From Myxococcales bacterium UBA4248 (GTDB taxonomy: Bacteria; Myxococcota_A; Bradymonadia; UBA4248): a stretch of DNA of 64,000 nt. The position numbers were made by a program, and so were the translations under genes. Of the stretch, positions 594 through 60,178 are shown piece after piece. Where the stretch lies: assembly GCA_002395385.1 (NCBI GenBank), contig DGWW01000147.1:1214-65213 (forward strand), in the 5' to 3' direction. Numbering within the stretch: the first letter of the stretch is position 1; each line of letters opens with the position of its first letter. The notes beneath the pieces are model-generated. The model was given only the letters and a program-made list of their open reading frames with translations. It did no database searches and was not told the DNA's origin.

Positions 594-653
594 AGCCGCC
601 GTATGCAATAGGCGGCTACCGCAAGCGTATTCGCCAAAGGCGAATAGCTGCGG
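594..653 (+). repeat. tandem bulged-hairpin element (G-bulge on +)
   Basis: agccgcc[g]tat-gca-ata-ggcggct and ccgca(a)gc[g]tattcgcc-aaa-ggcgaata-gctgcgg. Confidence 0.8.
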
Positions 654-663
654 AAAAAAGAAC

Positions 664-687
664 AAAAAAAAGCGCCCCGAGGGGCGC
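664..687 (-). terminator. Rho-independent terminator of the gltG-like gene
   Basis: gcgcccc/ggggcgc stem followed by T8 on the minus strand, just past the stop at 706. Confidence 0.75.
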
Positions 688-705
688 CTCTAAACAATCA
701 TCGAA

Positions 706-2730
706 TTAGTTTGCACTTCCGGCTTCGAACACGAACGGGTATTCGATCTGAACGATACCGCCGCCCTTAGGAGCCGGGAATCTCCAGAATTTAATGGAGT
801 TCACGACACAGTTTTCGACGTTTTTATTCTTGATAGTCGATTCTTTTACAAGCGCCTTGGTGACGGCACCCTGTGGTGAAATCAGCCAGACGACGACGAC
901 ACGACCATTAAGACCTTTGATCTTGTTCAATTCTTTTTCGTAGCAGGCACGGAGTTCACCGGAGTGCTGACGGACGACTTTCTGAATAATACGTTTATCG
1001 AGAGCACCGGTAACTTCGGGGTTCTTCATTTTAACCTGAGGACGTGCCTCACCTTTTGCACCGAGGTTAGCGTTGTAGCCCTGGGAAGCGGTACGAATAG
1101 CGCCACCGCCGCCACCGCCGCCGGGGCCGAAGCCGCCAGCACCGAATCCGCCCATACCGGCACCGCCGCCGCCTGTACCGCTGGCACCGAGACCGTAACC
1201 AGCCGATGCAGCCTGAGCAGAAGCATCGAAGCTCGACCAATCGAGGTTATCGAGATCCATCGCATTACCGACAGCCAACATGGAGTTCATGGCGTTGGCC
1301 TGAGCCAAAAGACCGGTTGCCTGAGCAGCGCCGACAGCCTCACCTTTGGACATACCTTTACCCGGTGTAGAAGCATCATTGGCAGCAGTATTTGCAGCAA
1401 AAGGCGTATCGGGAGCATCCTTAGTGAGTTCCTGATCTTCTTCGGGTTCTTCTTCTTCGGGTTCTTCTTCTTCCTGCATTTCTTCTTCGGGTTCTTCGAC
1501 GACGGGTTCTTCAACGACGACAGCAAAACGCGAAGTATTGAGGATACGGTCGACCATCAAAGCATCGACACGGTTTGTAGCGAACAGAATCACGGAGAAG
1601 AGTGCGAAGTGGATGAGGAGGGAGGCGACCAAACCGCCGTAATTGGACGAAGAGAGGCTGAACAGAGGTGCGGCAAAAGGAACGGCATCGACGAAGTGGA
1701 CGAGGATAGAGACTTCACCGAACACAAATTTTGCACGTGTCTCGCCATTTACTTCGCATGCCAGCGATCCCGGAGGAAGTGGCACGGAGCTGCGTGGGGT
1801 ACGGAAATCGGCACTGCTGGCGGATGCGAATGGGATCTTGTTATTGCCAATGAGAACAAACCCTTCATAAGCGTTATTAAAGAGCAGTTCCCATTTTCCG
1901 CCGATGCACTGAGCGACAGCAATTTTACTGGTGTTACCAACAACAACTTTATAATTGCAGGTAGAATCACTGCCTACGGTCACAGTCGTACCGCTCGAAG
2001 CAGGATATTGATCGATACTGAGCACGGTATCGCGCCAAACCATTGCAACTTCCAGTTTACAGTTTGCAGACTTTCCGCGAGCGGAGAGGAAGCGGCGTTC
2101 AAAGCTGACGGGGCGTTTTTTCTTACGAATGATGGTTGTTGCAGGTGCAGATGACTGTGCAAACTTGCCCATACCGGCAGCAGCAGCACCGCCACCGAAG
2201 CCAGCGGCTTTAGCAGCAGGTCTGGCAGCAGCGGGAGCAGTAACCGACGGTGCGGGAGGTGCAGCGGGTGCAGCGGGTGCAGCCGGAGCGGGGGGGGCAA
2301 CGGGAGCAGCCGGAGCCACGGAAGGATCAGCGGCAGCCATTTCCTGCAACACAGGTGTAGGAACGGAGAGCGTCGCATGATCGCCGTCTTCGCCATCCAT
2401 CTCACTCAATTCACTGATGCCCATATTCATCACATCCTCGAGTACGAGACGAACCGAAACCTGACCAAAGCGCAGAATCGCACCATTCGTCACCATGACG
2501 GGTTTTGTCGATTCAACTTTCTGCTGATTGACAAAGGTACCAGTCTGGCTAATGCGATCTGATAATTTATAACCGTTGGAAACTTTCTCGAGTACTGCAT
2601 GTACGCGCGAAACAGAGTCGTCATTCAGGCAGAGTTCGCAGCTCGCATTTTTTCCGATGCGAATGGGATTGGCATTGCTCTCCACTACCTGAAGCACCTC
2701 AAAATTAGGTCCAAGAACCTCAAATTTCAT
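706..2730 (-). CDS. gltG: FHA-domain / TonB-like AgmX-PglI C-terminal domain protein, GltG (PglI) homologue
   Basis: N-terminal FHA (IGK...VSRVHA...GTFVN), Pro/Ala linker, TM helix, acidic and Gly-rich stretches, C-terminal IQKVVRQH..LRACYE...WRFPAPKGGGIVQIEYPFVF. Lies next to a gltF-like gene. Confidence 0.8.
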   Translation of the reverse strand: MKFEVLGPNFEVLQVVESNANPIRIGKNASCELCLNDDSVSRVHAVLEKVSNGYKLSDRISQTGTFVNQQKVESTKPVMVTNGAILRFGQVSVRLVLEDVMNMGISELSEMDGEDGDHATLSVPTPVLQEMAAADPSVAPAAPVAPPAPAAPAAPAAPPAPSVTAPAAARPAAKAAGFGGGAAAAGMGKFAQSSAPATTIIRKKKRPVSFERRFLSARGKSANCKLEVAMVWRDTVLSIDQYPASSGTTVTVGSDSTCNYKVVVGNTSKIAVAQCIGGKWELLFNNAYEGFVLIGNNKIPFASASSADFRTPRSSVPLPPGSLACEVNGETRAKFVFGEVSILVHFVDAVPFAAPLFSLSSSNYGGLVASLLIHFALFSVILFATNRVDALMVDRILNTSRFAVVVEEPVVEEPEEEMQEEEEPEEEEPEEDQELTKDAPDTPFAANTAANDASTPGKGMSKGEAVGAAQATGLLAQANAMNSMLAVGNAMDLDNLDWSSFDASAQAASAGYGLGASGTGGGGAGMGGFGAGGFGPGGGGGGGAIRTASQGYNANLGAKGEARPQVKMKNPEVTGALDKRIIQKVVRQHSGELRACYEKELNKIKGLNGRVVVVWLISPQGAVTKALVKESTIKNKNVENCVVNSIKFWRFPAPKGGGIVQIEYPFVFEAGSAN

Positions 2731-2825
2731 TATTTTATCCTCATCTCTTGCGTCAAAAAAAAGCGCACGCCCACATGATACCTGCTAGGCATTTTTAGTG
2801 GTTTACCAATATTCTTTAATGTCGA

Positions 2826-3062
2826 TTAGAGTTCGTCTACAGTTTTACGCATTTCATCGACGAAATCTTCTCGGGCCTTAATCAGGCTCGACAGCTCATC
2901 GAGTTCTTTGACATTGATGTTCGTCGAATTCGGAACCATCAAGTCACCTTCGATACGGTCATCTTCGAAACTGATTGTCTGCATTTTGGCTTCCTGTGCG
3001 AAAGCTGTACCGCTACCGAAAATGACACCCAAAACGATTGCTGCACCGATTAATTTTTTCAT
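2826..3062 (-). CDS. gltF: small secreted gliding protein, GltF/CglF-like
   Basis: Start reassigned to MKKLIG after an AAGGAGA RBS. Signal peptide, then ISFEDDRIEGDLMVP...SLIKAREDFVDEMRKTVDEL, matching the CglF pattern. Confidence 0.75.
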   Translation of the reverse strand: MKKLIGAAIVLGVIFGSGTAFAQEAKMQTISFEDDRIEGDLMVPNSTNINVKELDELSSLIKAREDFVDEMRKTVDEL

Positions 3063-3179
3063 AATATTTCTCCTTATATGAGACACCCCCAAATATCTCA
3101 TAACATATTTTTGCTCATGTGACAAGACAGACATTTATGGAACCAGAAAGACCAAACAGATGCATGTTCTGGCCCGCCA

Positions 3180-5393
3180 TTATTTGGCTTCGGGCTTTTT
3201 AATGCGATCATAACCGGATTGTTTAAGCGTAAACGTTCCCTTGGCATCGAGTCCAACATCAAATGTGTATTTGCGCGAAGACTGAAGTTCCTGTTCCTGG
3301 CCGCCTCGAACCGGTCGGAGGTTGCCTTCCGTTCCCGTTGCACCGAGAAATTCCCAATCCGGGCCAGAAGGCACGGTGCTTTCCTGCGTCATGTCCGGGC
3401 AAATGAGTTCACCCGCACGGCGAAGGCAAACGCGCAATCCTTCTTCGGAAGAATTGAATTTTACGATCGATTCACCGATCGATTCACGCAAAAGGTTGGT
3501 ATCGAGGTTGAGCGAACCAAAGCCATCGGGAATCACAGAAACCTGGAGCGGCAGACGCTGATCATGGGTAATGTAATACTCGATGATGTCACCAGGCTGA
3601 ACGGTTGCAACAATCGGGCGAACGTAATCCTGACCGCCTGTCGAAATCTTGAGGCCGTAGGGTTTTGAAGAGGGGGCAAACTTTTTGAGTGCACATTTGG
3701 TCCCCATCAGAGCACTGTCTTCCGGGACGAGGGCCGGAATGGTGACCGTCGTGTCCGGATGAACCGGCCAAATGATGTGCATGTGCTTGGCAAAGCCCGG
3801 TTTTTCAATTGTGAGCACGTGCGGCCGGCCGAGCACTACTTCAGAAACGGCCGATGGGAAATTGCCAATGGCACGACCGTCGAGCATGGCTTTGAGGCCC
3901 ACACCCTGATTGCTGATATCCGTCAGACGAAAATCAATCCGGCCTTTGAGATAGAGGGAATCCGGGATCATTTCGATCTCGATGGGACCGGTGACATCGG
4001 TTTTGGAATCGAATGTCTTAAAGAACGGCACCATACCATCCGCATACGCCATAATGGTATTGCGGTGATTGGATACGAATTCAAAACTGCCTGTCGGTGA
4101 AACCTCAACGCCGTTGATGAAAATCGTGCTTGCCCCACCCGTCTTGATATTGACTGGATAGGTGCTGAGATGAACTTTTTCGACGACGGGTTTTGGAACT
4201 TCAACCACCTCTTCCTGTTTTTTCTGCTGCTCAGCCTGAATTTCAGCTTCGGACGGTCCGCTGAACGCCAGGAAATAAAAGCCAACGCCTGCGGCCGCAA
4301 GAACAAGAATAATAATGATCGCCAAAACGGGCCCGCCGGAATTCTTTTGCTGTGTCATACCAGGATTACCGTACATTTCCATCAGCTCCCTTTGTTTTGC
4401 ACGTCGCTGTTCTGCCTCAGCCTGCTGTTGCTGAAGAGAATATTGCTCATATTCAGCTCTTTCTTCGGGGGTCATTGATTCATAAAGTGCCATCAGCTGC
4501 TCTTCATCCGAGAGTTCACGCTGAGGTGCTGCCGGCTGTGCATACCCGGACGGAGTCTGGGGCACCTGAACCGAAGGGGCAGCAGGGGCAGCAGGCGGCA
4601 TCTGGACAGAAGGTGTTGCGGGAGCTGCGGGCGGCATCTGAACAGAAGGTGTTGCGGGAGCTGCAGGCGGCATCTGGACAGAAGGTGTTGCGGGAGCTGC
4701 AGGCGGCATATGAACAGAGGGCGTTGCGGGTGCCGCAGGTGGCATCTGAACCGATGGTGAAGGATGGGGCGCAGACGGCATCTGAGTGGATGGTGTCGCC
4801 GAAGCTGCATTCGAAGCCGCCCCAGTCCCGGGAATCGGAATTGGTTTGGACACCGGCGTTGCTGCAAGTGCCGCTGCCAGTTCTGCATTCATAAACGGGG
4901 ATTCAACCATTTCCGTTTTTGACGAATCGGCAGAAGGCATATCAATCGCCATGGTCTCATCTGTCGCGGCTGCCGCAGGTACGGCCGCTGGTGATGCACC
5001 ACGGATAATGGGTACGCGCTGGGAAGGAATATTAAATTCGGATGCAGGAGTGATCGAAGACGATCGATTGGTCACAGTCGTCATTTCATCATCAAGCGCC
5101 ATCAAATCATCCAGAGACTCCGCAATTGAACGGTTTTCGGATGTCACATACGCTGCACCTGCATCTTCGGGGACATTGTCCCAACCGTCGATCCCTCCCA
5201 CAGCCGCAAGGATATCGTCAGCTGAACGTATATCGGTCGGTTCATCCGATGTCATGAAATCAAGCGATTCCATTTCGGAAATAGCACTCGAGCTTTGATT
5301 GCGATTCAAAGCACCAATTTTAGGAATGCTGGGAAGGCTTGCGCCATGAATACTTGGCATATTCTTACCCGACTTAACTCTATATTCACCCAT
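3180..5393 (-). CDS. single-pass membrane protein with Pro/Ala-rich repeats and PEGA-like extracytoplasmic domains
   Basis: Start at MGEYRV (AGAAGG RBS). Disordered N-terminus, PPAAPATPSVQM repeats, TM segment (VLAIIIILVLAAAGVGFYFL), PEGA-like LGRPHVLTIEKPGF. Confidence 0.7.
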   Translation of the reverse strand: MGEYRVKSGKNMPSIHGASLPSIPKIGALNRNQSSSAISEMESLDFMTSDEPTDIRSADDILAAVGGIDGWDNVPEDAGAAYVTSENRSIAESLDDLMALDDEMTTVTNRSSSITPASEFNIPSQRVPIIRGASPAAVPAAAATDETMAIDMPSADSSKTEMVESPFMNAELAAALAATPVSKPIPIPGTGAASNAASATPSTQMPSAPHPSPSVQMPPAAPATPSVHMPPAAPATPSVQMPPAAPATPSVQMPPAAPATPSVQMPPAAPAAPSVQVPQTPSGYAQPAAPQRELSDEEQLMALYESMTPEERAEYEQYSLQQQQAEAEQRRAKQRELMEMYGNPGMTQQKNSGGPVLAIIIILVLAAAGVGFYFLAFSGPSEAEIQAEQQKKQEEVVEVPKPVVEKVHLSTYPVNIKTGGASTIFINGVEVSPTGSFEFVSNHRNTIMAYADGMVPFFKTFDSKTDVTGPIEIEMIPDSLYLKGRIDFRLTDISNQGVGLKAMLDGRAIGNFPSAVSEVVLGRPHVLTIEKPGFAKHMHIIWPVHPDTTVTIPALVPEDSALMGTKCALKKFAPSSKPYGLKISTGGQDYVRPIVATVQPGDIIEYYITHDQRLPLQVSVIPDGFGSLNLDTNLLRESIGESIVKFNSSEEGLRVCLRRAGELICPDMTQESTVPSGPDWEFLGATGTEGNLRPVRGGQEQELQSSRKYTFDVGLDAKGTFTLKQSGYDRIKKPEAK
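4561..4790. repeat. 36-bp in-frame tandem repeat (about 4 good plus 2 degenerate units)
   Basis: ggcggcatctggacagaaggtgttgcgggagctgca units encoding PPAAPATPSVQM. Confidence 0.85.
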
Positions 5394-5507
5394 AATGACT
5401 AACCTTCTGGAAAAATTTACCAATGAACGTGCAAAGCGTCGTCGCATCATGCCACAAAGCATCATTTCATTCAAGTCGAATGCGATCTCAAAAAAAATGG
5501 TTTTGTT

Positions 5508-5571
5508 GCCGAGGCTATTTGGCATTTGCCAAATACGCCTTCGGCCGCGCCGCTATTGACATACGCGGCGC
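5508..5571 (-). repeat. tandem bulged-hairpin element (G-bulge on -)
   Basis: gccgaggc-tatttggca-tt-tgccaaata[c]gcc(t)tcggc and gcgccgc-tat-tgac-ata[c]gcggcgc. Confidence 0.85.
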
Positions 5572-5784
5572 ATACTTTTTTGACACAGGCTATGTCTGAC
5601 CATCGTGGATAAATATTGTTATTTAGTTTTCGGCATTGCATATTTCAAAATTTTGGGATTAGAACTTTGAGCGGCGAATTCTGTCTCGATGCTCCACCAC
5701 CCAAAATTGCAATTTCCCGTATAAAACCCTCACACCAGGCAGAAGACAGATGAAAATATTCTTTTGGGGAATTGTGTTTTTTTA

Positions 5785-5974
5785 AGCTCTGTTTAACGAG
5801 TGTGGATACACTTGAGCATGTAGCTCATAGCTTATAACTTATAGTTGAGAAATCATTTCATAGGAATCATGCTTTTCCCCACGAGATTTAGATTCCTTCT
5901 ACAAGCTAAAAACGAAAAGCAATAAATAATTGAGTTATCGGAACCAATCATATCCACGGTGGTTAAACACAGCC
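5785..5974. mobile_element. MITE-like element, TIR family B
   Basis: gctctgtttaacgagtgtggata ... tatccacggtggttaaacacagc imperfect inverted termini. Same termini at 63663-63797. Confidence 0.6.
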
Positions 5975-6010
5975 AAAAAAAAGCCCCGGCAATTGCTTGC
6001 CGAGGCTTTT
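5975..6010 (-). terminator. Rho-independent terminator after gltC
   Basis: aaaaaaaagccccggcaa-ttgc-ttgccgaggctttt. Confidence 0.7.
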
Positions 6011-6032
6011 GAACTCGATTTTTTACACGGTA

Positions 6033-7784
6033 TTAACGACCGCAGCGTGAAGAAATATAGTACCAGTAATATCCGAGCTCATCCTTCCAATACTCGCCAT
6101 CAAATGTCCAGAAGAGATGCTCATCATCGGCACCCATAACTTCATCGACTTGACGTTCGAATTCGAGCAGGGCATTGGGATCCTGTTCCATCAACTCGAC
6201 ACGTGCCGCATATTTCTCGGTTGTTTCAATTTCGATATCGAGTGCACGGTTGGAGAGGTCGCGGAGTTCTTCCTGAAGTCTTTCGAGACGTGATTTACCT
6301 TTTTTACCTGCTTCAACGACGGAGAGCATGCGTGCAGCTTCCAATTCCTGAACCATGGTCTGTCCAAGCGAGGATCCCGAAAGCGCAGGATCTTTCTGAA
6401 TGGTAGCTTTTTCATCATCGAGCATATCGATGTAGGCAAGACCACGTCGGAGTTCACGGTCCTGAACAGAGGCTTCGAGGATCAGCTGCAGTGTAGGATC
6501 GTAGGATTCTCTGTCGGCATTCTGAACCATGTGGAGGAAGTCATAAACTTCTTCGGGCTGGAACAGACGGGAAACGAGCGTGTCAACCTGTTTTTTCATG
6601 GGATCGTAGGTAGCTTTGTAATCCGCAAGAATGTCGACGACGCGATCATAGTGGCAGTTGGTGTAGTAAATGGTAGCCTGAAGAAGACGTGCTTCGGGAT
6701 AATATTTATCGCTGAAGTACGGGCTGTTCAGTGTAAGGAGAAGACCGAGTGCCTTCCCGAAATTATCTACACGATAATAAGCCCAGCTTGCTTCAAAGAG
6801 GGCATCGAGCCACATGCGGCTGTCACGTGAGAAAGCATTGTAATATTTGATGGAAGTAGACCAGCTATTGGCAGCCTTTTCACGTTCACCCATTTTCCAC
6901 AGTGTGGAGCCGACCTGATAGAAGACGCGGGCGAGTGCAGCGTATGTGTATTCGCGAAGACGGGATTCTTCTTTTGTGAGGCCTTCAGCAGAGGTAGATT
7001 TTGTATCGAGCCATCGCAAAACCTCTTTGAATGAATCGAGTGCGGGCTGACCTTTATTCTGACGAACATAGGTCACGCCTTCGAGGTAACGCGATTTGGG
7101 ATACAGCGGGCTATCCTGTGCAACCGAGCCGACGAAGAAAACGACATCATCGAGTTTTGACTCGCGGTATGCGGCCATGGCGAGGAGATATCCCACTTCG
7201 GATGTCAGAGCAGCCGGAACTTCAGCAGGGAATTTATCGAGGTAATTCTCATAAATACGGGCATATCTTCTCGGTTCACCGGGAAGAACACGTCCAATCA
7301 GAACGAGGTAATTGAGTGCCAGGTCGAATTCTTTTGAGCTCGGTCCCTGAGAGACGACCATATCAAAATGGTTCAGAGCTGACTGATAGTACTTGGCTTC
7401 ATAGAGGGCGCGTCCCAATTCATAATGAAGCTGTGCGGACATACCGACAGAAGCACTGTCTCCGGCAGCGATCGTGTCATTCAGGAGCTGAGCAGCCTGA
7501 ATGTAATTACCCGATTCGATCATCGCCTGTGCCTGTGTATAGTTTGCATACGCACCTGAACTTGTATCGATCACGGCCGGGGCTGTCGTGGTGGAAGCAC
7601 CGCCACCTTCAGACCCGAAATCGAGCCCGCTTCCGGAGCCCTCAGCTGCCGCAGAGTTCTCAGTGGACCCCTCATCACCAAAATCCAAACCACCATCCTG
7701 AGCCTGTGCACTCAATGGTGCGAACATCATTGCACCAGCGATTAACACTGCACTTAAGCCTAGCTTCCCACTCTTCAGATGCAT
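6033..7784 (-). CDS. gltC: periplasmic TPR protein, GltC homologue
   Basis: Signal peptide, TPR helices, ALFEASWAYY and YYTNCHY motifs, C-terminal WTFDGEYWKDELGYY...SRC typical of GltC. Confidence 0.75.
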   Translation of the reverse strand: MHLKSGKLGLSAVLIAGAMMFAPLSAQAQDGGLDFGDEGSTENSAAAEGSGSGLDFGSEGGGASTTTAPAVIDTSSGAYANYTQAQAMIESGNYIQAAQLLNDTIAAGDSASVGMSAQLHYELGRALYEAKYYQSALNHFDMVVSQGPSSKEFDLALNYLVLIGRVLPGEPRRYARIYENYLDKFPAEVPAALTSEVGYLLAMAAYRESKLDDVVFFVGSVAQDSPLYPKSRYLEGVTYVRQNKGQPALDSFKEVLRWLDTKSTSAEGLTKEESRLREYTYAALARVFYQVGSTLWKMGEREKAANSWSTSIKYYNAFSRDSRMWLDALFEASWAYYRVDNFGKALGLLLTLNSPYFSDKYYPEARLLQATIYYTNCHYDRVVDILADYKATYDPMKKQVDTLVSRLFQPEEVYDFLHMVQNADRESYDPTLQLILEASVQDRELRRGLAYIDMLDDEKATIQKDPALSGSSLGQTMVQELEAARMLSVVEAGKKGKSRLERLQEELRDLSNRALDIEIETTEKYAARVELMEQDPNALLEFERQVDEVMGADDEHLFWTFDGEYWKDELGYYWYYISSRCGR

Positions 7785-10592: not shown

Positions 10593-10619
10593 GGCGCGTA
10601 TTTGCTTGCAAATAGCGCC
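10593..10619 (+). repeat. bulged-hairpin element (single)
   Basis: ggcgc[g]tatttgc-tt-gcaaata-gcgcc. Confidence 0.75.
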
Positions 10620-17841: not shown

Positions 17842-17878
17842 TTTTTTATTTGTACCTCGCTCACAAACGGCCAATGCC

Positions 17879-43074: not shown

Positions 43075-43124
43075 TCTTTTCATTGCTGTACCGGTCCTTG
43101 CAGCCTGACGGCTGCTACGTCCTC

Positions 43125-43982: not shown

Positions 43983-43987
43983 CCGCC

Positions 43988-44958: not shown

Positions 44959-44985
44959 CCATACGTGCCAAGATAAGTGGGCGAA

Positions 44986-45201
44986 TTACCAATAACTTGC
45001 TGTAGCTTCGCTCGCCTGCTCCCGGGTCAGATTGTACTTTTCAATGAGATAATCTATGGTTTCTGAGCGCGTTTTCCCAAAATCTTTGCAAGCACGAATT
45101 GCTGAGACTTTCTCACCGTTCTCAAAACCGACTTTCTCACCGTTTTCAAAGCCTTCGGCTTTTATCTGACTGACCCATTTATCCCAGATTTCGCACATCA
45201 T
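44986..45201 (-). CDS. stand-alone duplicate of the Rpn C-terminal 71 aa
   Basis: Near-identical to 45224-45439; has its own GGAGA RBS and ATG. Confidence 0.7.
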   Translation of the reverse strand: MMCEIWDKWVSQIKAEGFENGEKVGFENGEKVSAIRACKDFGKTRSETIDYLIEKYNLTREQASEATASYW

Positions 45202-45223
45202 CGTTTCTCCAAACGGCTAACAA

Positions 45224-46129
45224 CTACCAATAAGACGCCATAGCGTCGCTCGCCTGCTCCCGGGTCAGATTGTACTTTTCAATGAGATAATCTATGGTTT
45301 CTGAACGCGTTTTCCCAAAATCTTTGCAAGCACGAATTGCTGAGACTTTCTCACCGTTCTCAAAACCGACTTTCTCACCGTTTTCAAAGCCTTCGGCTTT
45401 TATCTGACTGACCCATTTATCCCAAATTTCGCACATCATCGTTTCTCCCGATTTAAAATCACTGATATCTAAGTTTTTTAAAGCCTCATCTCCTGTCAGT
45501 GATGCAAATAGTGCAAGCATTTCATCGATGTATTTGACTGGCTGTGCAATGCCCGTAATTTTGCCAGTCTCACGTATTTCACACAATACTTCGACCAAAA
45601 TCCTAAAATCCCCGGTCAGTAACGCTCTTTGCGAAGGCGCCAACCAAGCGAGATTTGTCACATCTATTTTATAATCCTGAAAAAAATCTGCAAGCTCTGC
45701 TGGCAGATTTACCAAATCCTTTAATGAAAATGGCCACTGCCACTTCTGACGATAACTGTAATTTAAAACATGCGAAAAAACAGGCGCTATCCTGATGTTC
45801 TGATTGATATGTTCAATGTGATTCAATTGATAGCGATATCTTGAAAAATCATATCCCATCATTCGAATCGGCATGCCAATATCAACAGACATCTGATTTT
45901 CTAAACCACATACAATCAACCCCAGCATAAATCCGTCGTATATTTTTACAACATCGCGCCGGAGTTCTTCTGGTTTGCTATTTTCAATATGCTCATACTC
46001 TGTGGCAGCTTCGTGCAAATGTCCCGGGTCAAGATGTATTTTGTTTTTGAGTGCAAATACGCTGAATACCTCGGCAAACTCATCATTATGATCGAGAAGC
46101 ATCTTTTGTGCTTTATCGAACGCCCCCAT
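45224..46129 (-). CDS. Rpn/YhgA-like recombination-promoting nuclease (putative transposase family)
   Basis: RRDVVK, GLENQ...D..MP.R...YD...Y..Q, FFQDYKI, E/G-rich C-terminus; AGGAGG RBS; low GC. Confidence 0.8.
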   Translation of the reverse strand: MGAFDKAQKMLLDHNDEFAEVFSVFALKNKIHLDPGHLHEAATEYEHIENSKPEELRRDVVKIYDGFMLGLIVCGLENQMSVDIGMPIRMMGYDFSRYRYQLNHIEHINQNIRIAPVFSHVLNYSYRQKWQWPFSLKDLVNLPAELADFFQDYKIDVTNLAWLAPSQRALLTGDFRILVEVLCEIRETGKITGIAQPVKYIDEMLALFASLTGDEALKNLDISDFKSGETMMCEIWDKWVSQIKAEGFENGEKVGFENGEKVSAIRACKDFGKTRSETIDYLIEKYNLTREQASDAMASYW

Positions 46130-46280
46130 TCATCCTCCTGTAATATCACAAGGATCTATTTAACGAATGTGGATATTCGTTTTCACAGATTACTTCCATT
46201 CTAGTGTTTAATTGCATAAATCATAGATATTATTGTCAAAAGAAGCCTGTAGGGCTTCAAGGTAAGTAGCCCACATTAAT

Positions 46281-46341
46281 GTCCCCCTCGCCATTTATGG
46301 AGAGGAGGAATGTCTGCCGCAGGCTGACAAGGGGGTGAGGT
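46281..46341. repeat. REP-like palindromic remnant (CCCCTC...GAGAGG...GGGGTGAGG type)
   Basis: tccccctcgccatttatggagaggagg...gggggtgagg. Confidence 0.35.
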
Positions 46342-46522
46342 CTGACTACCGCAGGAACAATGGAATCCCCCAAAATCGAACTCCGTAGGCGTTCCACAAA
46401 TTATCTCTTACTTTTGCAATTAAACACCAGCTTAGAGCTTAGAGAATGGGTTGACTACTCCAAGCTCAAAGTTCAAAAGTCATCAGAATTCTGGTAATAC
46501 AGAATCAATATCAATAATCTGA

Positions 46523-46897
46523 TTAATACGGAAATGCCTCATCAAGCTGCTGATCATCTGCGTCATGATTAGCATTGGGGGATCTGCGGCTCGATAAGAA
46601 TGTTATTTTTTCCGCAATAATAGATTGGAAATAGCGTTTTTGACCGTCTTTTTCATAAGCCCGATTATCAATGCGCCCCTCGATACAGCATAAGTCGCCC
46701 TTGTGGAGATGATTGTGACACAAAATGGCCTGTTTGCCAAAAGCACAGATACGATGCCATTGAACTTCTTCTTTCCCGTCCCGGAACGTAGAATTACTCA
46801 GATTAAAATTGACATATTCTGTCTTTTTCCCCTGATTTAATTCGGGATCACGAGCGAGTCGACCAATGATAATTGTTTTGTTATAAGTATTTGCCAT
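46523..46897 (-). CDS. ssb: single-stranded DNA-binding protein (short, 124 aa)
   Basis: NKTIIIGRLARDPEL, QWHRICAFGKQA, KGDLCCIEGRI; acidic tail DEAFPY; AAGGA RBS. Confidence 0.92.
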   Translation of the reverse strand: MANTYNKTIIIGRLARDPELNQGKKTEYVNFNLSNSTFRDGKEEVQWHRICAFGKQAILCHNHLHKGDLCCIEGRIDNRAYEKDGQKRYFQSIIAEKITFLSSRRSPNANHDADDQQLDEAFPY

Positions 46898-47303
46898 AAT
46901 CGTATCCTTGTAAAATGCTGGGTATAAATGAAATATAATTAGCGACAAATCCTCAGGTTTTTCTTGTTGCCGAAATACCAATCATTGATATCGGCATATC
47001 CAGAATGAGCCCTGCTAATGATACTCAGACGACTTATACGAATTATTGAATGTCAGGGAGAGTCTCTCATTTTTGTACACATATTCTATTCCTCCAGAAA
47101 AACATCTTTTTTTTTGCATAAAAACATCGGCCGAACGAGGACATGAAATACCAATGACAAGTGATTACAACTCATTTTTTGAGTTCTGAATGCTTCATAA
47201 CCATCGTCCATAGGATATTGAATGCAGATATCCATCCGCCTGAACTGCAGACACATTTGTGTCCCGACGTCGATGCAGCCTTGCGAAATTCTTTTCACCC
47301 TAT

Positions 47304-47331
47304 ATATGGGCAATTTTTACAAAAAACGGCC
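47304..47331 (-). promoter_or_regulatory. GGCC-N16-GCCCATAT motif
   Basis: atatgggcaatttttacaaaaaacggcc, nearly identical to the copy at 24196. Confidence 0.6.
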
Positions 47332-47477
47332 AAAAAAAATGCATTTTTTTCATTTTTTTTTCGCCGAAAGAATTGAGACCGACGAAATCAAATCCACAAT
47401 GGCATATCGCGCATTGCGAATTGCGAATTCAGACAATTTGGGTTATGCTGTAAGCGTTTGTTCTGCGAGGTAAACCG

Positions 47478-48239
47478 ATGGATCAAAAACAGCAACAATC
47501 AAATCAAGACAACTACAATTCCAATTACGATATTCTCGATGGTTCGGCAGACCGGAACCAACCCAAAGAATCAGAAGTCGTTCGGGCAATTGAGCGCGAC
47601 ATTTCGCTGCAGGAATACGAAAACGACAAAGAGTATATTCTTCAGGCAATAAAAGATTACCTCAAGGAACGCAAATATGACGACGCCCAAGAGCTCGTCT
47701 ACAAATACCGCGCAGCGGCCAAAACAGATGAAAATTTTGCAGTCCTCGCGCGCCTCACAGCTCAGGGACTCGAAGCGCACTCTAAGTTCGAAAAAATCGA
47801 TACGGTGCTCGATGCCACGCCCGATGACGATTACCAGACACGCATATCACTGTGCAAACGCGCACTCAAAGTTGAGCCGGGCAATGAAAAATACAAGCAG
47901 GAACTGGAGCGATGCCAACGCGCACTCGGCATTCAGCCGACTCAGAATAAAGCCACCAGCACCCAGTCATCCGCGGATTCAAATCAGTTATTTACGCCTT
48001 CGGCAAAAGCATGGGCCATCGCAAGCGCCCTGTGGACAGGATTATCAACCTGCTTCTTCTTTAGTGAATACGGTTTTCTTTCTGGCTGCCTCGGAATCGC
48101 CCTAATTGTTGCCAACACCTGGCTCTATTCGAACCATCCATCCTCACCGATTCGACAACTTGGTACCGTCGGCAAAGTTCTCGTCAATATTGGCGTGTGG
48201 TGCCTGGCCTTTATCATCATTGCGCTTGTGAGCGTATAA
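47478..48239 (+). CDS. hypothetical membrane protein (TPR-like N-half, 3 C-terminal TM segments)
   Basis: GAGG RBS; CKRALKVEPGNEKY TPR-like motif; hydrophobic C-terminus. Confidence 0.75.
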   Translation: MDQKQQQSNQDNYNSNYDILDGSADRNQPKESEVVRAIERDISLQEYENDKEYILQAIKDYLKERKYDDAQELVYKYRAAAKTDENFAVLARLTAQGLEAHSKFEKIDTVLDATPDDDYQTRISLCKRALKVEPGNEKYKQELERCQRALGIQPTQNKATSTQSSADSNQLFTPSAKAWAIASALWTGLSTCFFFSEYGFLSGCLGIALIVANTWLYSNHPSSPIRQLGTVGKVLVNIGVWCLAFIIIALVSV

Positions 48240-48249
48240 CCGGATGGAT

Positions 48250-48322
48250 GCGCACAGCTATTGGCCTTGCGGCCAATACGCCCCGCGCGCTTTGGCTATT
48301 GCCTGCAGCAATACGCCAAAGC
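48250..48322 (-). repeat. tandem bulged-hairpin element
   Basis: gc-tattggcc-ttgc-ggccaata[c]gc; gctttggc-tattgc-ctgca-gcaata[c]gccaaagc. Confidence 0.88.
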
Positions 48323-48323
48323 C

Positions 48324-49136
48324 CTATTTTTCTGATTTACCGTTCCGAATGCGATCGATAAAATCACAGGTAATTTCAAAAACTGCAGCAGCCTGACAAT
48401 CTTGTCCTAGCTCATGTCCCGAACGTTTCAGCGTATGCATCTCGCAGTAACTGCTGCCTGCTTTTTTAAAGAGCATGCGCGAAGTCGAATAAGTCACAAC
48501 CTGGTCGCGCTTTGAATGTATAATGCACAGGGGTACTTTGACATCCGAAACGAGCATGCGCGACTTGGCTGCATAGTCATAAAGCTCGACGAAAGCTCTG
48601 GTGGGAAAATACTTATAATTTTGGTTCTTTTTCCGGCATTCATCATCCCGAAAGCTTTCCTGCCCCTTCCAATATTTCGAAAAAAAGGCGATAACTTTCG
48701 AGAAGCCTGCCAGTTTGTTCACGAATCCAAGAGCGGCTGCCCAGGTGATGCAGGCACAAATCTTATCGTGATAGGGATGGGCAAGCGCGCAAAGATTAAG
48801 TGCAACCAGTCCGCCCATAGAGAATCCAATGACAACAACGCGATCGACACGTTCACAGAGCGTGCCAAGGGCTTTGAGTGCATCATCGTACCAATCCTGA
48901 GCTTTCACGCCTATTAATGCTTCTGGTGTCGCATTATGCCCGCGAAGGATAGGCATTTCATAGGGTATATTCATCTCTTCAAACTTGGGCAGAATATCCT
49001 GGATACTCGCTGGCGCCGAAGTAAACCCATGCAATAGGAGAACCCCAAGTTTTTCGATTTTGGAATCTGGAAAAGTACCTCGCTTCTCAAATACCGCAGT
49101 ATCTTTTGAGCCATTTAGCTCATGTGTGGCTTGCAT
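48324..49136 (-). CDS. alpha/beta hydrolase (carboxylesterase-like)
   Basis: LLLHGFTS, GFSMGG, HSKRDQVV, RSGH. Confidence 0.9.
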   Translation of the reverse strand: MQATHELNGSKDTAVFEKRGTFPDSKIEKLGVLLLHGFTSAPASIQDILPKFEEMNIPYEMPILRGHNATPEALIGVKAQDWYDDALKALGTLCERVDRVVVIGFSMGGLVALNLCALAHPYHDKICACITWAAALGFVNKLAGFSKVIAFFSKYWKGQESFRDDECRKKNQNYKYFPTRAFVELYDYAAKSRMLVSDVKVPLCIIHSKRDQVVTYSTSRMLFKKAGSSYCEMHTLKRSGHELGQDCQAAAVFEITCDFIDRIRNGKSEK

Positions 49137-49239
49137 GAAACCTCCATTATGTATTAGTATATTGATAAATACAGACTGGTTAAGCCTGTAATGTTCATAT
49201 ACAGGTTACCGTTCAGTCTTCCAAGAAGGATCCGGACGC

Positions 49240-51408
49240 ATGGCAAAGAAAAAATCAGTTTCAAAAGCAGAAGCTTCAAAAACCCCTAATGTTCAAACAG
49301 AATCAACTGAACAAGCCCCAATCGTTCAGGCAGAAACGACTGAACAAGCTCCGATCGGCCAGGCAGAATGCACTGAACAGACGACAGACATCCAGACAGA
49401 AATATCAGCACCCGTTGAATTAGAGAAAACAGAAATTCTCAGTCCTTTGGACACGCTAACAGAAAATACGCCACACGAAGAATCCGGGCACCTTCATTCG
49501 ACGGGGGAATTTTCAGTCGAAGGAGAACTGGAAGATTCCCAGGTATTGGCGCGCCTGAGAGCAGTTGCTTTAACACCATCCGAAATCTATCGGGAAGCGC
49601 AGCTGTTTCAAGCACAGAAATTGGATATTTGCGCACTTTTACAAAGCAGCGAACCCATTCTCGTACAAAATGTGGTGGATATTCTGAGAATGCTCGGCAT
49701 CTGGAACAGCATGGCTTTCAGGCATATTGCCGATGATGATTCCCGGACTGTCGAATGTGTAACGCGCTATATTTCTCATTGTTTTAAAAACGGCCTTGTC
49801 AGTGCCATGGATGTCGCCGATGCACTGTCCCCCATCAAAGATGACAATGCGGCAGCGGTATCTTCATTTGCAGAAAAATTCTCTTCCGTACTTCTGAATG
49901 CCATCTCACAGACCCAAAGACCAGACCAACTTGCGGATGTCATGCCGGCTTTCACCCGACTGTGTGTATATTTGGATGGCAAGACGATCAGCCGTTTGCT
50001 CTACGATCCATTGCCAAGTGTACGCATTGCCGTTCTTCGCAGCTTTGTACTTCGGGGCACGATTGATACCAATGACCTGAGTGTTGCGCTCATATTGCTC
50101 AAAGACAAAGACGAGCAGGTCAATATTGCAGTCATGCGCATGATTTCCCGTTTTGCGGTTTACCCGGAACTCGTCATTCCACAGATTCTTCCCTATGTTC
50201 CAGAAGCCTGCGAAGAATTCCTGAACGAAATTCTGGACGTATTCCGCAGCTACGGCAATGCTGCCGTCGAGCCACTCATCATGTCACTTGCCGACCCACG
50301 GGAAGAAATTTTCCAGGCAGCACGCATCATCATAGCGCAAATGCCGCAGCGTTTTACCGAAGGTTTGTTAAAAGCCTTTATCAGTGTGCGGACGAGAGAG
50401 CTCGTCAAAGAGCGAATTATCCAAATTTTGCGGGAGCATCGCGATCCAGGGCGTCGCGAAGAAATTCTTCAGACGCTGAGTGCCTATCTGGATGCCCCAA
50501 ACGATGACTATCCCGAATGGAAGGCACCGGACACGCGCGTCAAATTCATTCCCAAAGCAGTCGATAATGATGATGTTTATCAGCGTATTTTGGGCGAGGA
50601 TGAACTTCCTGCACTTTCGGAAGTCTGTACCGATGAGGTGCTTGGCCGTCTGCTCGGGGATGCGGAAGATTTTGCGAGAATCAATGCATTGAATGTCATT
50701 CGTTACCGGAAAGAGGCTTCACCGGCAATTCAGTTTGAAATGCTCGTCTGGCTCAAATCTTCATCGCCCGACCTTGCCAGAGCCGCACTCGATGCCTATC
50801 TTTCGGTCGAAAAAGACACCGATAAATCGATCGCCGTCATTCTGGGTGCATTCGAGCATGGAGAAAACGACGAAATCAAGAAAAGCTATTTCAATATATT
50901 GCTCCAACATCAGGATGCCATTGATGCACTGATACGTGCCTACTACCAAACCCCAAAGAAATGCGCCAATTTCATCATAAAATTCCTGGCCATTGGTCCG
51001 AGCGAGGCCACCTTTAAGGGTATTTTAGCAGGCATTGAACGCGACAAATCGGTTGCTTGTATCTCAGAGACCCTGAACGCACTCATGCGGACGAAACACC
51101 AGTTCAATGACAAGGCAATCCGTCCCGATTTAATTCGGCTCATTCGGGAACCCCTTTCCTATGGTCATTATGGTTTTATGACGCGTTTGCTCAGTCTCAA
51201 ACTCCTGCAGCTCTATCTCACCCGGGATGAAGAGAGGGACCAGGAAACCATCAGCCAACTGCAGGCTTTTTACAAAGAATGCAAGAATTCAGACCTTAAG
51301 ACATTAACCAAGACTATTCTTAAGGATATGGGCGAAGAAATCTTTGATTTCGACGATGAAGAGGATGATTTTGAAGATTTAAGAGAAGAAGACGAGGATG
51401 ACGAATAA
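49240..51408 (+). CDS. HEAT-repeat protein with acidic tail
   Basis: LLYDPLPSVRIAVL, LLKDKDEQVNIAV, LLGDAEDFARINAL; short 11-aa N-terminal repeats. Confidence 0.8.
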   Translation: MAKKKSVSKAEASKTPNVQTESTEQAPIVQAETTEQAPIGQAECTEQTTDIQTEISAPVELEKTEILSPLDTLTENTPHEESGHLHSTGEFSVEGELEDSQVLARLRAVALTPSEIYREAQLFQAQKLDICALLQSSEPILVQNVVDILRMLGIWNSMAFRHIADDDSRTVECVTRYISHCFKNGLVSAMDVADALSPIKDDNAAAVSSFAEKFSSVLLNAISQTQRPDQLADVMPAFTRLCVYLDGKTISRLLYDPLPSVRIAVLRSFVLRGTIDTNDLSVALILLKDKDEQVNIAVMRMISRFAVYPELVIPQILPYVPEACEEFLNEILDVFRSYGNAAVEPLIMSLADPREEIFQAARIIIAQMPQRFTEGLLKAFISVRTRELVKERIIQILREHRDPGRREEILQTLSAYLDAPNDDYPEWKAPDTRVKFIPKAVDNDDVYQRILGEDELPALSEVCTDEVLGRLLGDAEDFARINALNVIRYRKEASPAIQFEMLVWLKSSSPDLARAALDAYLSVEKDTDKSIAVILGAFEHGENDEIKKSYFNILLQHQDAIDALIRAYYQTPKKCANFIIKFLAIGPSEATFKGILAGIERDKSVACISETLNALMRTKHQFNDKAIRPDLIRLIREPLSYGHYGFMTRLLSLKLLQLYLTRDEERDQETISQLQAFYKECKNSDLKTLTKTILKDMGEEIFDFDDEEDDFEDLREEDEDDE

Positions 51409-51422
51409 AGGAGTGATATGTC

Positions 51423-51824
51423 ATGACAACATTGGATGAGCTCAAGGAACTGGCCATAGAAGCACAAAAAAAAGCCTACTGTCCCTACTCAAATTTTCCG
51501 GTAGGAGCGGCCCTTGAATGCAACGACGGTACTGTATTTACAGGATGTAATATTGAAAATGCATCCTATCCCATCGGTATCTGTGCCGAAAGGACCGCCA
51601 TGTCCAAAGCGATCAGTGAAGGGCACTACGATTTTAAACGCATCGTCATTGTTGCCAATACAGCGGATTATTGCTCGCCATGCGGCATGTGCCGTCAGTT
51701 CATGTTCGAATTTTCGCCGGAGTTAGAACTGATCTGCCTCAATGCAAACCACGATGCCAAATCATTTTCACTCAATGAACTGCTCGTCCATGGTTTTAAC
51801 GGGAGCAGCATGAGCAACCGATAA
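51423..51824 (+). CDS. cdd: cytidine deaminase
   Basis: AYCPYSNFPVGAAL, GCNIENASY, CAER, SPCGMCRQ. Confidence 0.96.
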   Translation: MTTLDELKELAIEAQKKAYCPYSNFPVGAALECNDGTVFTGCNIENASYPIGICAERTAMSKAISEGHYDFKRIVIVANTADYCSPCGMCRQFMFEFSPELELICLNANHDAKSFSLNELLVHGFNGSSMSNR

Positions 51825-51830: not shown

Positions 51831-51905
51831 CCGGTGCGTATTGTGGCAACGCCACAATAGCACCGGCAAATGACGCGTATTTGGCATCGCCAAAAAGCGG
51901 CATTT
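51831..51905 (+). repeat. tandem bulged-hairpin element
   Basis: ccggtgc[g]tattgtggc-aac-gccacaata-gcaccgg; aaatg.cgc[g]tatttggc-atc-gccaaaaa-gcg.cattt. Confidence 0.88.
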
Positions 51906-51984: not shown

Positions 51985-52056
<72 letters not shown>

Positions 52057-58204: not shown

Positions 58205-58346
58205 GTTAATGCATAATGCATAATCATGAATGCATAATGAAATGCAGCACTGAGAGGATTTGAATGATTCCTTTGGTTTTGCACACGCATTCAGAATTAT
58301 GAATTCAGAATTATGAATTAAAGATATTTTAAGTATTTTGTGAAAC
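58205..58346. repeat. second copy of the 40126-40268 module
   Basis: aatgcataatgaaatg...agaggatttgaatgattcctttgg...attcag.attatgaattaaaga...ttaagt. Confidence 0.8.
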
Positions 58347-58400
58347 GGCTCTTACTCCAGGGCAGAAACGTTGCTTTTATCCAGACTTTTAGCTTCTTTG

Positions 58401-58490
58401 GCGCGTGCTATTTGGTTCCAAACGTGAACACGTTTGAAACCAAATACGCCCTGCGCGCGCTGCTATTTTTTCAAAAAAAATACGCAGCGC
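58401..58490 (-). repeat. tandem bulged-hairpin element abutting the ABC stop codon
   Basis: gc-tatttggttccaaacgtg-aa-cacgtttgaaaccaaata[c]gc; gcgctgc-tatttttt...aaaaaata[c]gcagcgc. Confidence 0.88.
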
Positions 58491-60082
58491 TAATCCCATT
58501 CGGGCATGCGATGGCCCAAATACAGAATACCCATTTTGGGATACTTCTCCCGAATGCGCTCAAAGATTTGCCTGCAGAGTTCCGGTTCGAGCTCGCTGGC
58601 CATTTGATCGATGACGAGCAGCTTCGGATGCGTGACCAAAGATCTGGCGAGCATCACTCTGCGCTGTTCCCCGCCACTCAGGCGTGAGCCCTGATCGCCG
58701 ATAGATTCGGTGCCAAAACGGCGGTCTACTTCTTCGAGTGCGCACACATAGAGGAGTTCATGGTACTGTTCGTCCGTGAGTGTATCCCCCAAAAGTGCAA
58801 CATTATCCCGAACACTGCCATCGAACAGGACATTTTCCTGACAAACAAAGCCAATATTTTTGACATCACCCTCAGGAACATCAATTGCTCCCTGCGCGAT
58901 GGGATAAAGTCCCAGGATACACCTGGCCAATGTGGTTTTTCCCGAACCGGATGGCAGCAAAATCGCTTTCCGCTCTCCCTCAGAGAGTGAAAGATTTTCA
59001 TCTTCCCAGATGACATGATCGCCAAAAGAGAAAGAAAGATGATCGACCAGGAGCAGTCTTGGAGACTGTGCTTTCCCGAAATGGACTTCGGGAGCAGCCG
59101 GAAGGCGCTCAATATCGCAAGATCTGGCGCGGCCTTCGAGGTATTGCTGCCACGCGCTGAAGAGAGAGGTACTGCTCTTTAAAATTGCAAAAAGGCGCGC
59201 CAAATAAACCTGAAAAGCGACCACTGCACCGAGCGTCAAAGCATCCGACATGACAAGATAACCGCCGTACCCAAAGACCGCCACGAGCACAAAAGCTTGT
59301 AAAATATCGAAAAATGGGCCCTGTACAGCCAATCTTTTTTGAAGTGTATAACCGGCCTGGCAACATTGTTCACTCGTCGTTTCGAATTTTGAAGTGAACT
59401 GTGATTCGCGATGAAGCGCACGAATCGAGGTCAAAGCCGTAAAATAATCCGTAAATTCGCGGAACAGAGATTCATGCGTCTCGAATTCTCGCCGTGCAGC
59501 AGGCCGAATCTTGTGTTTGATCCAAAGCCACAAAGCAGCAGAAAAAGGGCATAAGATGAGGCTCAGAATGGCTGTCTGCCAGGAGAGATAAAGCAAAGCC
59601 ACGACTGTGCCCAATCCCGTCACAAGCAGCGCAGCCCCCTGTGTATAGAGTACCTCCATAAAATAGCTTTCGCTCGAGGATGCAAAGAGGATCTGGCCCA
59701 TGGCCTGGCCTCGCACCTGATCGGGCAGTGCACGCATATCGGCATACATGACACGCCTGAACAATGCATTCATGCGCGCCATCTGCAGATTGAGGCGAAG
59801 TTTTGCGATTTGGCAGACGCCCAGATAACGCAATATCCCCGACAGGATCTGAGCCAGCGTGACGATACCAAGCCAGATGGCCAGAATTTGTATATCCCGG
59901 TTTACAATGCCGACATCGACGATTTTGGCAATTCCCCACGGAACGACGAGGGAAAGCAGCGATGCCACAGCAATCCAAATCCCTGCCAGGATCCATCTGG
60001 CACGAGCGAGTTCCTGCAGATGGGGATGGGACGGCTCAAATTGTTCTTCAGATGGAATGGAATGTCCGCCATTGAAAGGCAT
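58490..60082 (-). CDS. ABC exporter, fused TMD + NBD (degenerate Walker B)
   Basis: 6-TM ABC membrane domain; PSGSGKTT, LSGGEQRR, LLVIDQ, GHR. Confidence 0.88.
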   Translation of the reverse strand: MPFNGGHSIPSEEQFEPSHPHLQELARARWILAGIWIAVASLLSLVVPWGIAKIVDVGIVNRDIQILAIWLGIVTLAQILSGILRYLGVCQIAKLRLNLQMARMNALFRRVMYADMRALPDQVRGQAMGQILFASSSESYFMEVLYTQGAALLVTGLGTVVALLYLSWQTAILSLILCPFSAALWLWIKHKIRPAARREFETHESLFREFTDYFTALTSIRALHRESQFTSKFETTSEQCCQAGYTLQKRLAVQGPFFDILQAFVLVAVFGYGGYLVMSDALTLGAVVAFQVYLARLFAILKSSTSLFSAWQQYLEGRARSCDIERLPAAPEVHFGKAQSPRLLLVDHLSFSFGDHVIWEDENLSLSEGERKAILLPSGSGKTTLARCILGLYPIAQGAIDVPEGDVKNIGFVCQENVLFDGSVRDNVALLGDTLTDEQYHELLYVCALEEVDRRFGTESIGDQGSRLSGGEQRRVMLARSLVTHPKLLVIDQMASELEPELCRQIFERIREKYPKMGILYLGHRMPEWD

Positions 60083-60117
60083 GCATCACCCATGTATGTG
60101 CTGTGCATCAAAAAAAG

Positions 60118-60178
60118 GCCGCGACGTATGCAATAGGCGCGGCGCGCATCCTGCAGCGGCCATGCCGCAAAGGTGCGC
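60118..60178 (+). repeat. bulged-hairpin element (second unit degenerate)
   Basis: gccgcg.c[g]tat-gca-ata-g.cgcggc then gcgcatc...gcggc-cat-gccgc...ggtgcgc. Confidence 0.65.

Follow-up and report, generated by a model that had tools for sequence, protein, structure and literature searches.

A dispersed family of tandem bulged-G hairpins in three genera of a Myxococcota-like family

The stretch analyzed here, referred to as the window, comprises 64,000 nucleotides of contig DGWW01000147.1 (positions 1,214 to 65,213) from Myxococcales bacterium UBA4248 (assembly GCA_002395385.1), a 4.6-Mb draft genome of 357 contigs with 47% G+C. Its spacers contain arrays of small hairpins that share one design: a GC-rich outer stem, one unpaired G, TAT, a variable inner stem with its loop, ATA and the returning arm of the outer stem. 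We call the strand that carries the unpaired G the G strand and its complement the C strand. Nine studies of gut metagenomes, from ruminants and other animals, contain DNA of this uncultured ruminant-gut myxobacterium. It has Glt gliding-motility genes, and GltG- and GltC-like genes of this gut-dwelling lineage lie at 706–7784 of the window, with scores below the equivalog cut-offs.

By our count the window contains about 26 units, grouped in 14 arrays, and these cover all 13 loci at which an earlier note on this DNA had placed dispersed bulged-G hairpins. Fifteen units match a strict descriptor (a perfect outer stem of at least 4 bp in the window scan and at least 5 bp genome-wide, the bulged G, TAT..ATA and a loop of at most 12), and the others, with one mismatch or an extra bulge, were found by a relaxed scan or by eye. 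Two units, at 24257 and 60144–60178, are off consensus. The units are listed below.

594–617, plus strand: array 594, unit 1, with a 7-bp outer stem, bulged G and TAT-GCA-ATA (strict scan)
619–653, plus strand: array 594, unit 2, head-to-tail, with one extra A in the outer stem (by eye)
5508–5545, minus strand, which is the G strand: array 5508, unit with its core at 5512–5540 (strict scan)
5547–5571, minus strand: array 5508, unit followed by a T-rich tract on the plus strand (strict scan)
10593–10619, plus strand: lone unit in a divergent spacer (strict scan)
17778–17815, minus strand: array 17779, imperfect unit (by eye)
17816–17841, minus strand: array 17779, unit followed by a T-tract on the plus strand, sense to gene 16366–17667, terminator-shaped (strict scan)
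18433–18466, plus strand: triple array 18433, unit 1, loop GCA (strict scan)
18468–18505, plus strand: triple array 18433, unit 2 (by eye)
18512–18529, plus strand: triple array 18433, unit 3, with a short (4-bp) outer stem and loop GAA (strict scan)
24257–24291, minus strand: array 24257, variant unit with TTT in place of TAT (by eye)
24293–24326, minus strand: array 24257, unit (relaxed scan)
31872–31923, plus strand: unit with a long inner stem (10 bp perfect) (strict scan)
31924–31981, plus strand: long-inner-stem unit abutting 31872–31923, 3′ of recD2 (by eye)
34451–34487, minus strand: array 34451, unit with G-strand loop GTCA (by eye)
34488–34513, minus strand: array 34451, unit with loop GCA (strict scan)
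43127–43169, minus strand: unit downstream of yidC, with a sense-strand T7 after it and tandem G.A in the G-strand inner stem (relaxed scan)
43209–43249, plus strand: array 43209, unit 1, preceded by an A-run (strict scan)
43255–43274, plus strand: array 43209, unit 2, with a short outer stem (strict scan)
48250–48288, minus strand: array 48250, imperfect unit (by eye)
48289–48322, minus strand: array 48250, unit followed by a T-rich tract on the plus strand (strict scan)
51831–51866, plus strand: lone unit between gene 51423–51824 and a tRNA gene (51985–52056) (strict scan)
58400–58456, minus strand: array 58401, unit with a long inner stem (by eye)
58457–58490, minus strand: array 58401, unit (strict scan)
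60117–60143, plus strand: unit after A7 (T7 on the minus strand, sense to gene 60390–61223), terminator-shaped (by eye)
60144–60178, plus strand: array 60118, degenerate second hairpin without TAT (by eye)

The hairpins lie far above chance in the genome, and their stems covary. The bulged G with TAT gives 635 strict matches genome-wide, 597 of them distinct sequences, compared with 34, 13 and 21 when the bulged base is A, C or T, 156 without a bulge, and a median of 8 (maximum of 64) when each of the 63 other triplets replaces TAT. Strict matches amount to 635–864 and the family to roughly 640–860 copies, with a typical unit of ~34 nt. To avoid circularity, we also searched with a sequence-only anchor, GCGTAT..ATAGC, which has 1,002 matches in the genome against 65 for the reversed pattern used as control. 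Outer positions 3–8, which this anchor does not demand, are paired in 51–84% of cases compared with 24–36% with shuffled partners, and GC, CG, TA and AT pairs each occur at every one of these positions. Complementarity maintained between differing copies, which the earlier note described, and a frequency above controls, which it asked for as a check, are thus borne out. The family also matches nothing described in Rfam, a comparison that the note had proposed: in the window only two tRNAs match at gathering scores, and even at E ≤ 1 no match overlaps a hairpin locus.

What stays constant is the junction (outer stem, unpaired G and TAT/ATA) and a GNA loop. Outer-stem length peaks sharply at 7–8 bp; 96% of units have C-G as the pair adjoining the unpaired G, and 76% have G-C at the pair after that. 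The outer stems themselves are diverse, with 213 different 7-mers among 474. The inner stem measures 0–19 bp with a mode of 3–4, which replaces the range of 3 to 18 bp given before, and the loop usually has 3 nt. The family had been described as conserved in structure, not in sequence. The first half of that description stands, as the stems do covary, but the second is too sweeping: the junction C-G-TAT/ATA-G and the loop C-GCA-G are conserved, and whole arrays are related over 60–137 nt at 75–86% identity, with outer-stem sequence in common and compensatory variants.

Units are stacked head-to-tail. Of 192 neighbors at most 60 bp apart, 175 are direct and 17 inverted, and they abut with gaps of −1 to +4 nt; adjacent units are also direct in genome samples from two relatives (15/15 in G012 and 14/14 in G003). 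An apparently lone unit is usually followed at once, 3′ on the G strand, by a second, weaker hairpin with a 3–5-bp outer stem and purine-rich arms on both sides. Arrays have a polarity, from an A-run through a strong unit to weaker, purine-flanked units. In a common composite, present in ~94–101 copies, an A-run and a bulged-G unit are followed by a second hairpin that has GTAG before its stem and arms able to form tandem G.A pairs. Two further hairpin repeat families occur on many contigs of the same genome, one on a AACAAATCCGTTTGTT palindrome (90 matches, both strands counted) and the other on CCGGGGCAGAGCCCCGG (63 matches).

The hairpins occur in three genera of one Myxococcota-like family. 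Measured over the reversed pattern, the anchor is enriched 5- to 20-fold in each of the 10 other species of the genus and in two more genera within its family. Two other genera in the family, and 14 genomes from other families, show no such enrichment.

Several features distinguish the two strands. Read on the G strand, the triloops are GCA in 177 cases and the complement TGC in 2; GNA accounts for 227 of 368, with a C-G closing pair, and four-base loops are mostly GNNA (GTCA 21, GCAA 9 and GAAA 7). In the 250 outer stems with one mismatch, purine–purine mismatches on this strand outnumber pyrimidine–pyrimidine ones by 164 to 19, and G.T outnumbers A.C by 49 to 18. By DNA parameters the G strand has the greater stability at 715 of 1,001 loci and its complement at 259; by RNA parameters the counts are 603 and 382. 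Loops of the d(GNA) type closed by C-G are described in excerpts of two papers as very stable DNA mini-hairpins (PMC3201870 and PMC13037366). Because loop polarity, purine mismatches and folding energies all favor it, the G-bearing strand is the folding strand, and the hairpins likely fold as single-stranded DNA. The GNA and GNNA loops, the tandem G.A pairs, the purine–purine mismatches and the lower G-strand energy lend support to the earlier suggestion that recognition occurs on a folded single strand.

Most of the hairpins (580/635) are intergenic, at densities of 1.6 per kb in convergent, 1.1 in tandem (co-directional) and 0.5 in divergent spacers, and arrays of both orientations lie a median of 45–62 nt past the upstream stop codon. 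Orientation does not follow transcription: of the hairpins in tandem-gene spacers, 151 have the G strand as the sense strand and 189 as the antisense strand. A T-tract (at least 5 T in 8) follows the C strand of 252 of the 635 hairpins and the G strand of 4; window examples are 17816–17841, 43127–43169 and 60117–60143. The reported lack of U-tails thus holds for the G strand and fails for the C strand, and setting the hairpins apart from true terminators was wrong for the complementary strand. Judged by this shape, many copies would stop transcription. Among arrays with a sense C strand, 96 of 160 are followed by the tract, compared with 33 of 129 with a sense G strand (p = 4 × 10⁻⁹), and the 252 family hairpins that have one outnumber the 81 classic GC-rich perfect hairpins with a T-tract, the stems of which end in CCC/GCC in this genome, not GC.

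The spacer after yidC allows a comparison between species. A unit with a sense-strand T-tract is kept there in all eight species of the genus for which this spacer was available, with compensatory outer-stem changes between species and an array size of 1 to 4 units. Its irregular pairs (G.T in the outer stem and tandem G.A in the inner stem) favor the G strand, which is antisense here. The neighboring pair at 43209–43274 is present only in the window's species and not in the seven others at that spacer. Wider sampling of orthologous loci with the gene after yidC, by a metagenome scan, gave six loci. One of these, a metagenome contig (L215) from a relative with 81% identity in that gene, lacks bulged-G hairpins over its whole 8.5 kb, and only ~20 nt separate yidC from the next gene on it.

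These observations raise the question of whether the family consists primarily of lineage-specific intrinsic terminators or other 3′-end RNA elements, in which an RNA-binding protein or nuclease would read the bulge and UAU/AUA and the family resemblance would come from shared constraints or from terminator duplication. The GC-rich stem followed by a sense-strand T-tract, the dependence of that tract on gene orientation, the distance from stop codons, the numerical excess over classic terminator-shaped hairpins and the yidC unit all fit such an account. So does the order of pairs within 100 bp, which are −+ in 18 cases and +− in 1, as expected of two facing terminators. However, orientation to transcription is near random for arrays (160 versus 129), so that 129 of 289 tandem-spacer arrays point the wrong way, and ~60% of the hairpins have no T-tract. 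Unlike intrinsic terminators, the family has a conserved internal motif with a bulge, and termination needs no head-to-tail stacks of two to four units. The better folding of the other strand extends to the conserved yidC unit, where the tandem G.A pairs would be C.U/U.C mismatches in the mRNA.

The arrangement of arrays relative to each other bears further on this point, because arrays separated by genes tend to alternate. With one gene between them, 58 strict-set array pairs are inverted and 15 direct (p = 4 × 10⁻⁷), and the counts are 33 versus 13 with two genes and 28 versus 11 with three (119 versus 39 for one to three genes together), falling to 58 versus 46 with four or more; the relaxed set gives 106 versus 34 for one gene. 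The strand of the intervening gene makes no difference to the excess. Of the 13 pairs of consecutive arrays in the window, 12 are inverted (p = 0.003), and the samples from the two relatives give 12 inverted versus 5 direct (G012, another genus, 462 kb) and 10 versus 1 (G003, 194 kb), or 22 versus 6 pooled. Array pairs whose A/T-tracts face each other are in excess below 2 kb (56 versus 27), compared with 108 versus 131 above 2 kb (p = 0.0006). Within co-directional gene runs (open reading frames (ORFs) of at least 150 amino acids between arrays), we find 29 inverted versus 12 direct pairs in the strict set and 52 versus 26 in the relaxed set. Terminators would be expected to share one orientation along co-directional genes; this account therefore leaves the alternation unexplained, and we consider it unlikely that the family is primarily a set of terminators or RNA elements. 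In order of magnitude, the range of the orientation effect matches the stretches of single-stranded DNA between Okazaki fragments, ~1.5–2 kb according to an excerpted paper (PMC5027513).

The closest known elements are repetitive extragenic palindromes (REPs), whose super-families are defined by an unpaired terminal GTAG or CGTC in a survey cited here from excerpts (Di Nocera et al. 2013, PMC3733652). As described there, catalogued REPs are small (20–40 bp) GC-rich palindromes with stems of 5–13 bp, present in hundreds of copies, mostly extragenic and mostly between convergent or co-directional genes. They form clusters and dimers and sub-families with alternative, compensatory stem residues, contain G.T and G.A pairs in their stems, and have had roles in termination and mRNA stability proposed for them. 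The bulged-G family is alike in these respects, and the partner hairpin in its arrays has GTAG before its stem. In contrast, its own motif is internal, between outer and inner stems, and is G-TAT, in which TAT pairs with ATA and G is the sole unpaired base. The dimers differ too: catalogued REP dimers are mainly head-head or tail-tail, head-tail ones being ‘absent, or under-represented’ in the excerpted text (PMC3733652), and GTAG families are linked to transposase genes there, whereas bulged-G dimers are head-to-tail and have no linked transposase gene. Because it has no terminal unpaired tag, another dimer type and no linked RAYT, the family does not belong to a catalogued REP family. The strings GTAT and Myxococc are absent from the text of the survey (PMC3733652), a literature search for REPs in Myxococcota found nothing relevant, and one on rumen Myxococcota found no paper on bulged-G repeats. 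The family nevertheless shares the general nature of REPs and is best described as an uncatalogued REP-like variant, not as a new kind of system. The idea of a wholly new signal does not survive its copy number, size, placement near gene 3′ ends and compensatory sub-families.

Escherichia coli REP/BIME elements and Pseudomonas REPINs with their RAYT provide a second comparison. They are likewise high-copy extragenic hairpins in composite arrays, and in the excerpted accounts a structure-specific protein reads them in the form of folded single-stranded DNA (PMC2817692 and PMC3479197). Their hairpins alternate in orientation at 10–100 bp spacing, whereas adjacent bulged-G units are direct and alternate only between arrays separated by genes, and RAYT does not track the family.

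This last statement rests on a search for RAYT (Y1_Tnp) in the window's genome and 30 relatives. Y1_Tnp has three matches in the window's genome. Two are stand-alone RAYT-like genes of 160 and 159 amino acids (L001 1300–1950 on G000 C271 and L002 1380–2050 on G000 C35), which are flanked, in inverted orientation, by a different REP with GTAG and a CCCCCGG stem, present in ~18 copies. One bulged-G pair lies ~170 nt downstream of the C35 gene and looks coincidental. The third match is a domain within a 1,285-amino-acid methyltransferase-like ORF (L004 2699–6556 on G000 C245), where it lies between repeated peptide segments that seem to be encoded by repeats. Of the 15 hairpin-bearing genomes, 5 gave no Y1_Tnp match (G003, G006, G008, G009 and G012, drafts that are 83–99% complete, G003 being 99% complete), and all 5 are rich in the hairpins. 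RAYT was therefore rejected as the partner. The earlier statement that no cognate enzyme is visible stands, and the proposed RAYT or TnpA(Y1) gene flanked by the elements and co-occurring with them was not found.

One could still suppose that these are ordinary RAYT-mobilized REPs in which GTAT is a degenerate GTAG tag and the cognate is one of the RAYTs of the genome or one missed by the assembly. The three Y1_Tnp matches, the true GTAG in same-array partner hairpins and the degeneration of GTAG tags reported in the excerpted survey (PMC3733652) speak for this, as do the GTAG-23 REPs of T. roseum, which are said there to sit inside CCGSSCC(n3,4)GGSSCGG palindromes. The different REPs beside the stand-alone RAYT genes, the hairpin-rich genomes lacking a match, the absence of GTAT from the 2013 catalogue and the rule of head-to-tail dimers make it rather improbable.

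The T. roseum elements also resemble the bulged-G units more directly, as clustered, tagged stem-loops within a 7-bp GC-rich outer palindrome. In the excerpted description, theirs form large blocks at a small number of loci and empty target palindromes are common (PMC3733652), whereas bulged-G units are spread genome-wide with a fixed outer-stem length and conserved junction-side pairs. With this precedent of REPs inside small GC-rich target palindromes, the inner module (G-TAT..ATA and its stem-loop) might have landed in the loops of GC-rich palindromes that were already there, for instance terminator stems, which would explain why outer stems vary between copies and why many have a T-tract beside them. 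The length peak at 7–8 bp, the constant junction-side pairs and the outer-stem sequence shared, with compensatory variants, by related arrays argue against such targets. Units that abut head-to-tail are unlike terminator stems, and classic terminator stems here do not end in GC; we judge insertion of this kind very unlikely.

Like the bulged-G units, the ends of IS200/IS605 elements and of their gene-less derivatives have sub-terminal hairpins with an irregular base, of which one strand is recognized; the two ends share a strand, and a segment that can be excised is therefore set by two sites of like orientation (excerpts of PMC5027513). The bulged-G family differs in that no TnpA was found with it, the Y1 genes present have other hairpins, no conserved cleavage tetranucleotide was seen at unit borders, and no strong replication-strand bias is apparent (GC-skew odds ratio 1.39, on short contigs). 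As in integron attC sites, an extrahelical base marks one strand of the hairpins and structure is kept more than sequence, and the family shows an orientation footprint; an integron integrase acting on the folded bottom strand might recombine such sites. By-eye comparison with the attC core-site consensus found no core sites and no cassette array, and the units are 25–55 nt long and abutting. The integrase profile (TIGR02249) passes its cut-off only in G024 and G027, both without hairpins; hairpin-bearing genomes have only weak matches (~70 bits against a 265-bit cut-off), which we take to be general, Xer-like tyrosine recombinases. The integron integrase was rejected as the partner, the analogy to attC fails on sequence and on the absent integrase, and an attC-like identity has a close to negligible probability in our assessment.

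Genes flanked by arrays were considered as candidate mobile genes. Pfam scanning of 20 of the 53 such genes outside the window (the next-shortest after one of 76 amino acids) and of window gene 17825–18421 found no shared enzyme. The genes are unrelated housekeeping or accessory genes, including those for a sigma factor, a phosphoesterase, PAP2, Fic and YhcG nuclease proteins, a solute-binding protein, peptidases, TolB and a transporter, and were rejected as candidates. We also compared window positions 30000–49999 with contigs of four independent DNA runs, with strains including ones ~99% identical. One metagenome contig spans 30000–37352 with 37 differences, and the only changes in or beside units are 1–2-nt indels (31860, 43146/43149 and 48322). 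Differences in array presence between strains, with breakpoints at the arrays, had been looked to as a possible sign of activity; none appeared in these runs at four array sites.

The same data and other comparisons yielded observations on neighboring segments. The recD2 gene (31990–34212) is bracketed by facing arrays; its orientation relative to the neighboring gene is reversed in G002 and G008, and the two are on separate contigs in six species. At 19236–24157, a SNF2-type helicase with weak likeness to DISARM DrmD lies beside a 991-amino-acid PglX-like adenine methyltransferase, a possible defense locus with arrays on both sides. A dispersed repeat of ~220 bp at 40079–40302 has more than 25 other copies in the genome at 80–91% identity and a contig depth ~25-fold over its surroundings in four metagenome runs. 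Depth is also raised at an intergenic repeat at 46200–46430, where 46201 and 46429 are joined on opposite strands in contigs of three runs; in three runs (X3, X6 and X8) 46267–46360/46372 is replaced by 10–24 other letters. This could be an invertible or variable segment.

Taken together, we give about an even chance to the reading that these are REP-like dispersed repeat units that act as G-strand DNA hairpins and have a structure-specific protein as a candidate reader. Such a protein would read the hairpin folded on the G-bearing DNA strand, and arrays in which the C strand is the mRNA strand and is followed by a T-tract may serve the host as intrinsic terminators. The scarcity of directly oriented arrays within a few kb may be the footprint of selection against losing the DNA between them. 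Such loss could come about by an enzyme that cuts or joins at folded sites or by replication slippage at stalled hairpins, and like-oriented sites would be tolerated where nothing lies between them. IS608 excision is reportedly reduced as the element gets longer (Ton-Hoang et al., 2010). We infer recombination or excision at bulged-G sites from this pattern. A stronger version, which we hold as tentative and somewhat doubtful, is that the units are live sites for a putative single-strand-DNA enzyme: like-oriented pairs within about an Okazaki length would be joined, alternation would be selected, harmless units of like orientation would accumulate head-to-tail within spacers, and one orientation would have been recruited as the main terminator. 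If like-oriented sites can be joined with loss, the chromosome would for that reason be tiled with alternating arrays.

A number of points weigh against the main reading as REP-like hairpins that act on the G strand. The link to GC skew is weak (p = 0.047, without correction for clustering), so there is no strong lagging-strand bias of the IS200/IS605 type. GNA loops, GNRA-like loops and G.A pairs are stable in RNA too, and the G-strand signal alone therefore cannot separate DNA from RNA. T-tracts are rarer in the two sampled relatives (9/58 and 6/39). No cognate enzyme emerged from the searches for RAYT and integron integrase or from Pfam analysis of array-flanked genes. No gain, loss, deletion or inversion joint was seen at the four array sites in the contigs of the four metagenome runs, and hence there is no sign of recent activity; because contigs drop rare variants, rare events at arrays may have escaped notice. 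Genes were called with our own simple ORF caller on short contigs.

REP-type repeats rank among the most abundant bacterial non-coding elements, and how they spread and are retained is settled for only a few proteobacterial families. The bulged-G family brings together features whose combination is not found in catalogued families: a motif with one unpaired base in a double stem, strict head-to-tail stacking and alternation between arrays. For annotation, most terminator-shaped hairpins in these genomes belong to this family. The alternation offers a testable population-genetic footprint, and, if like-oriented sites are dangerous, some activity still joins them, which may be a new single-strand-DNA recombination or excision enzyme.

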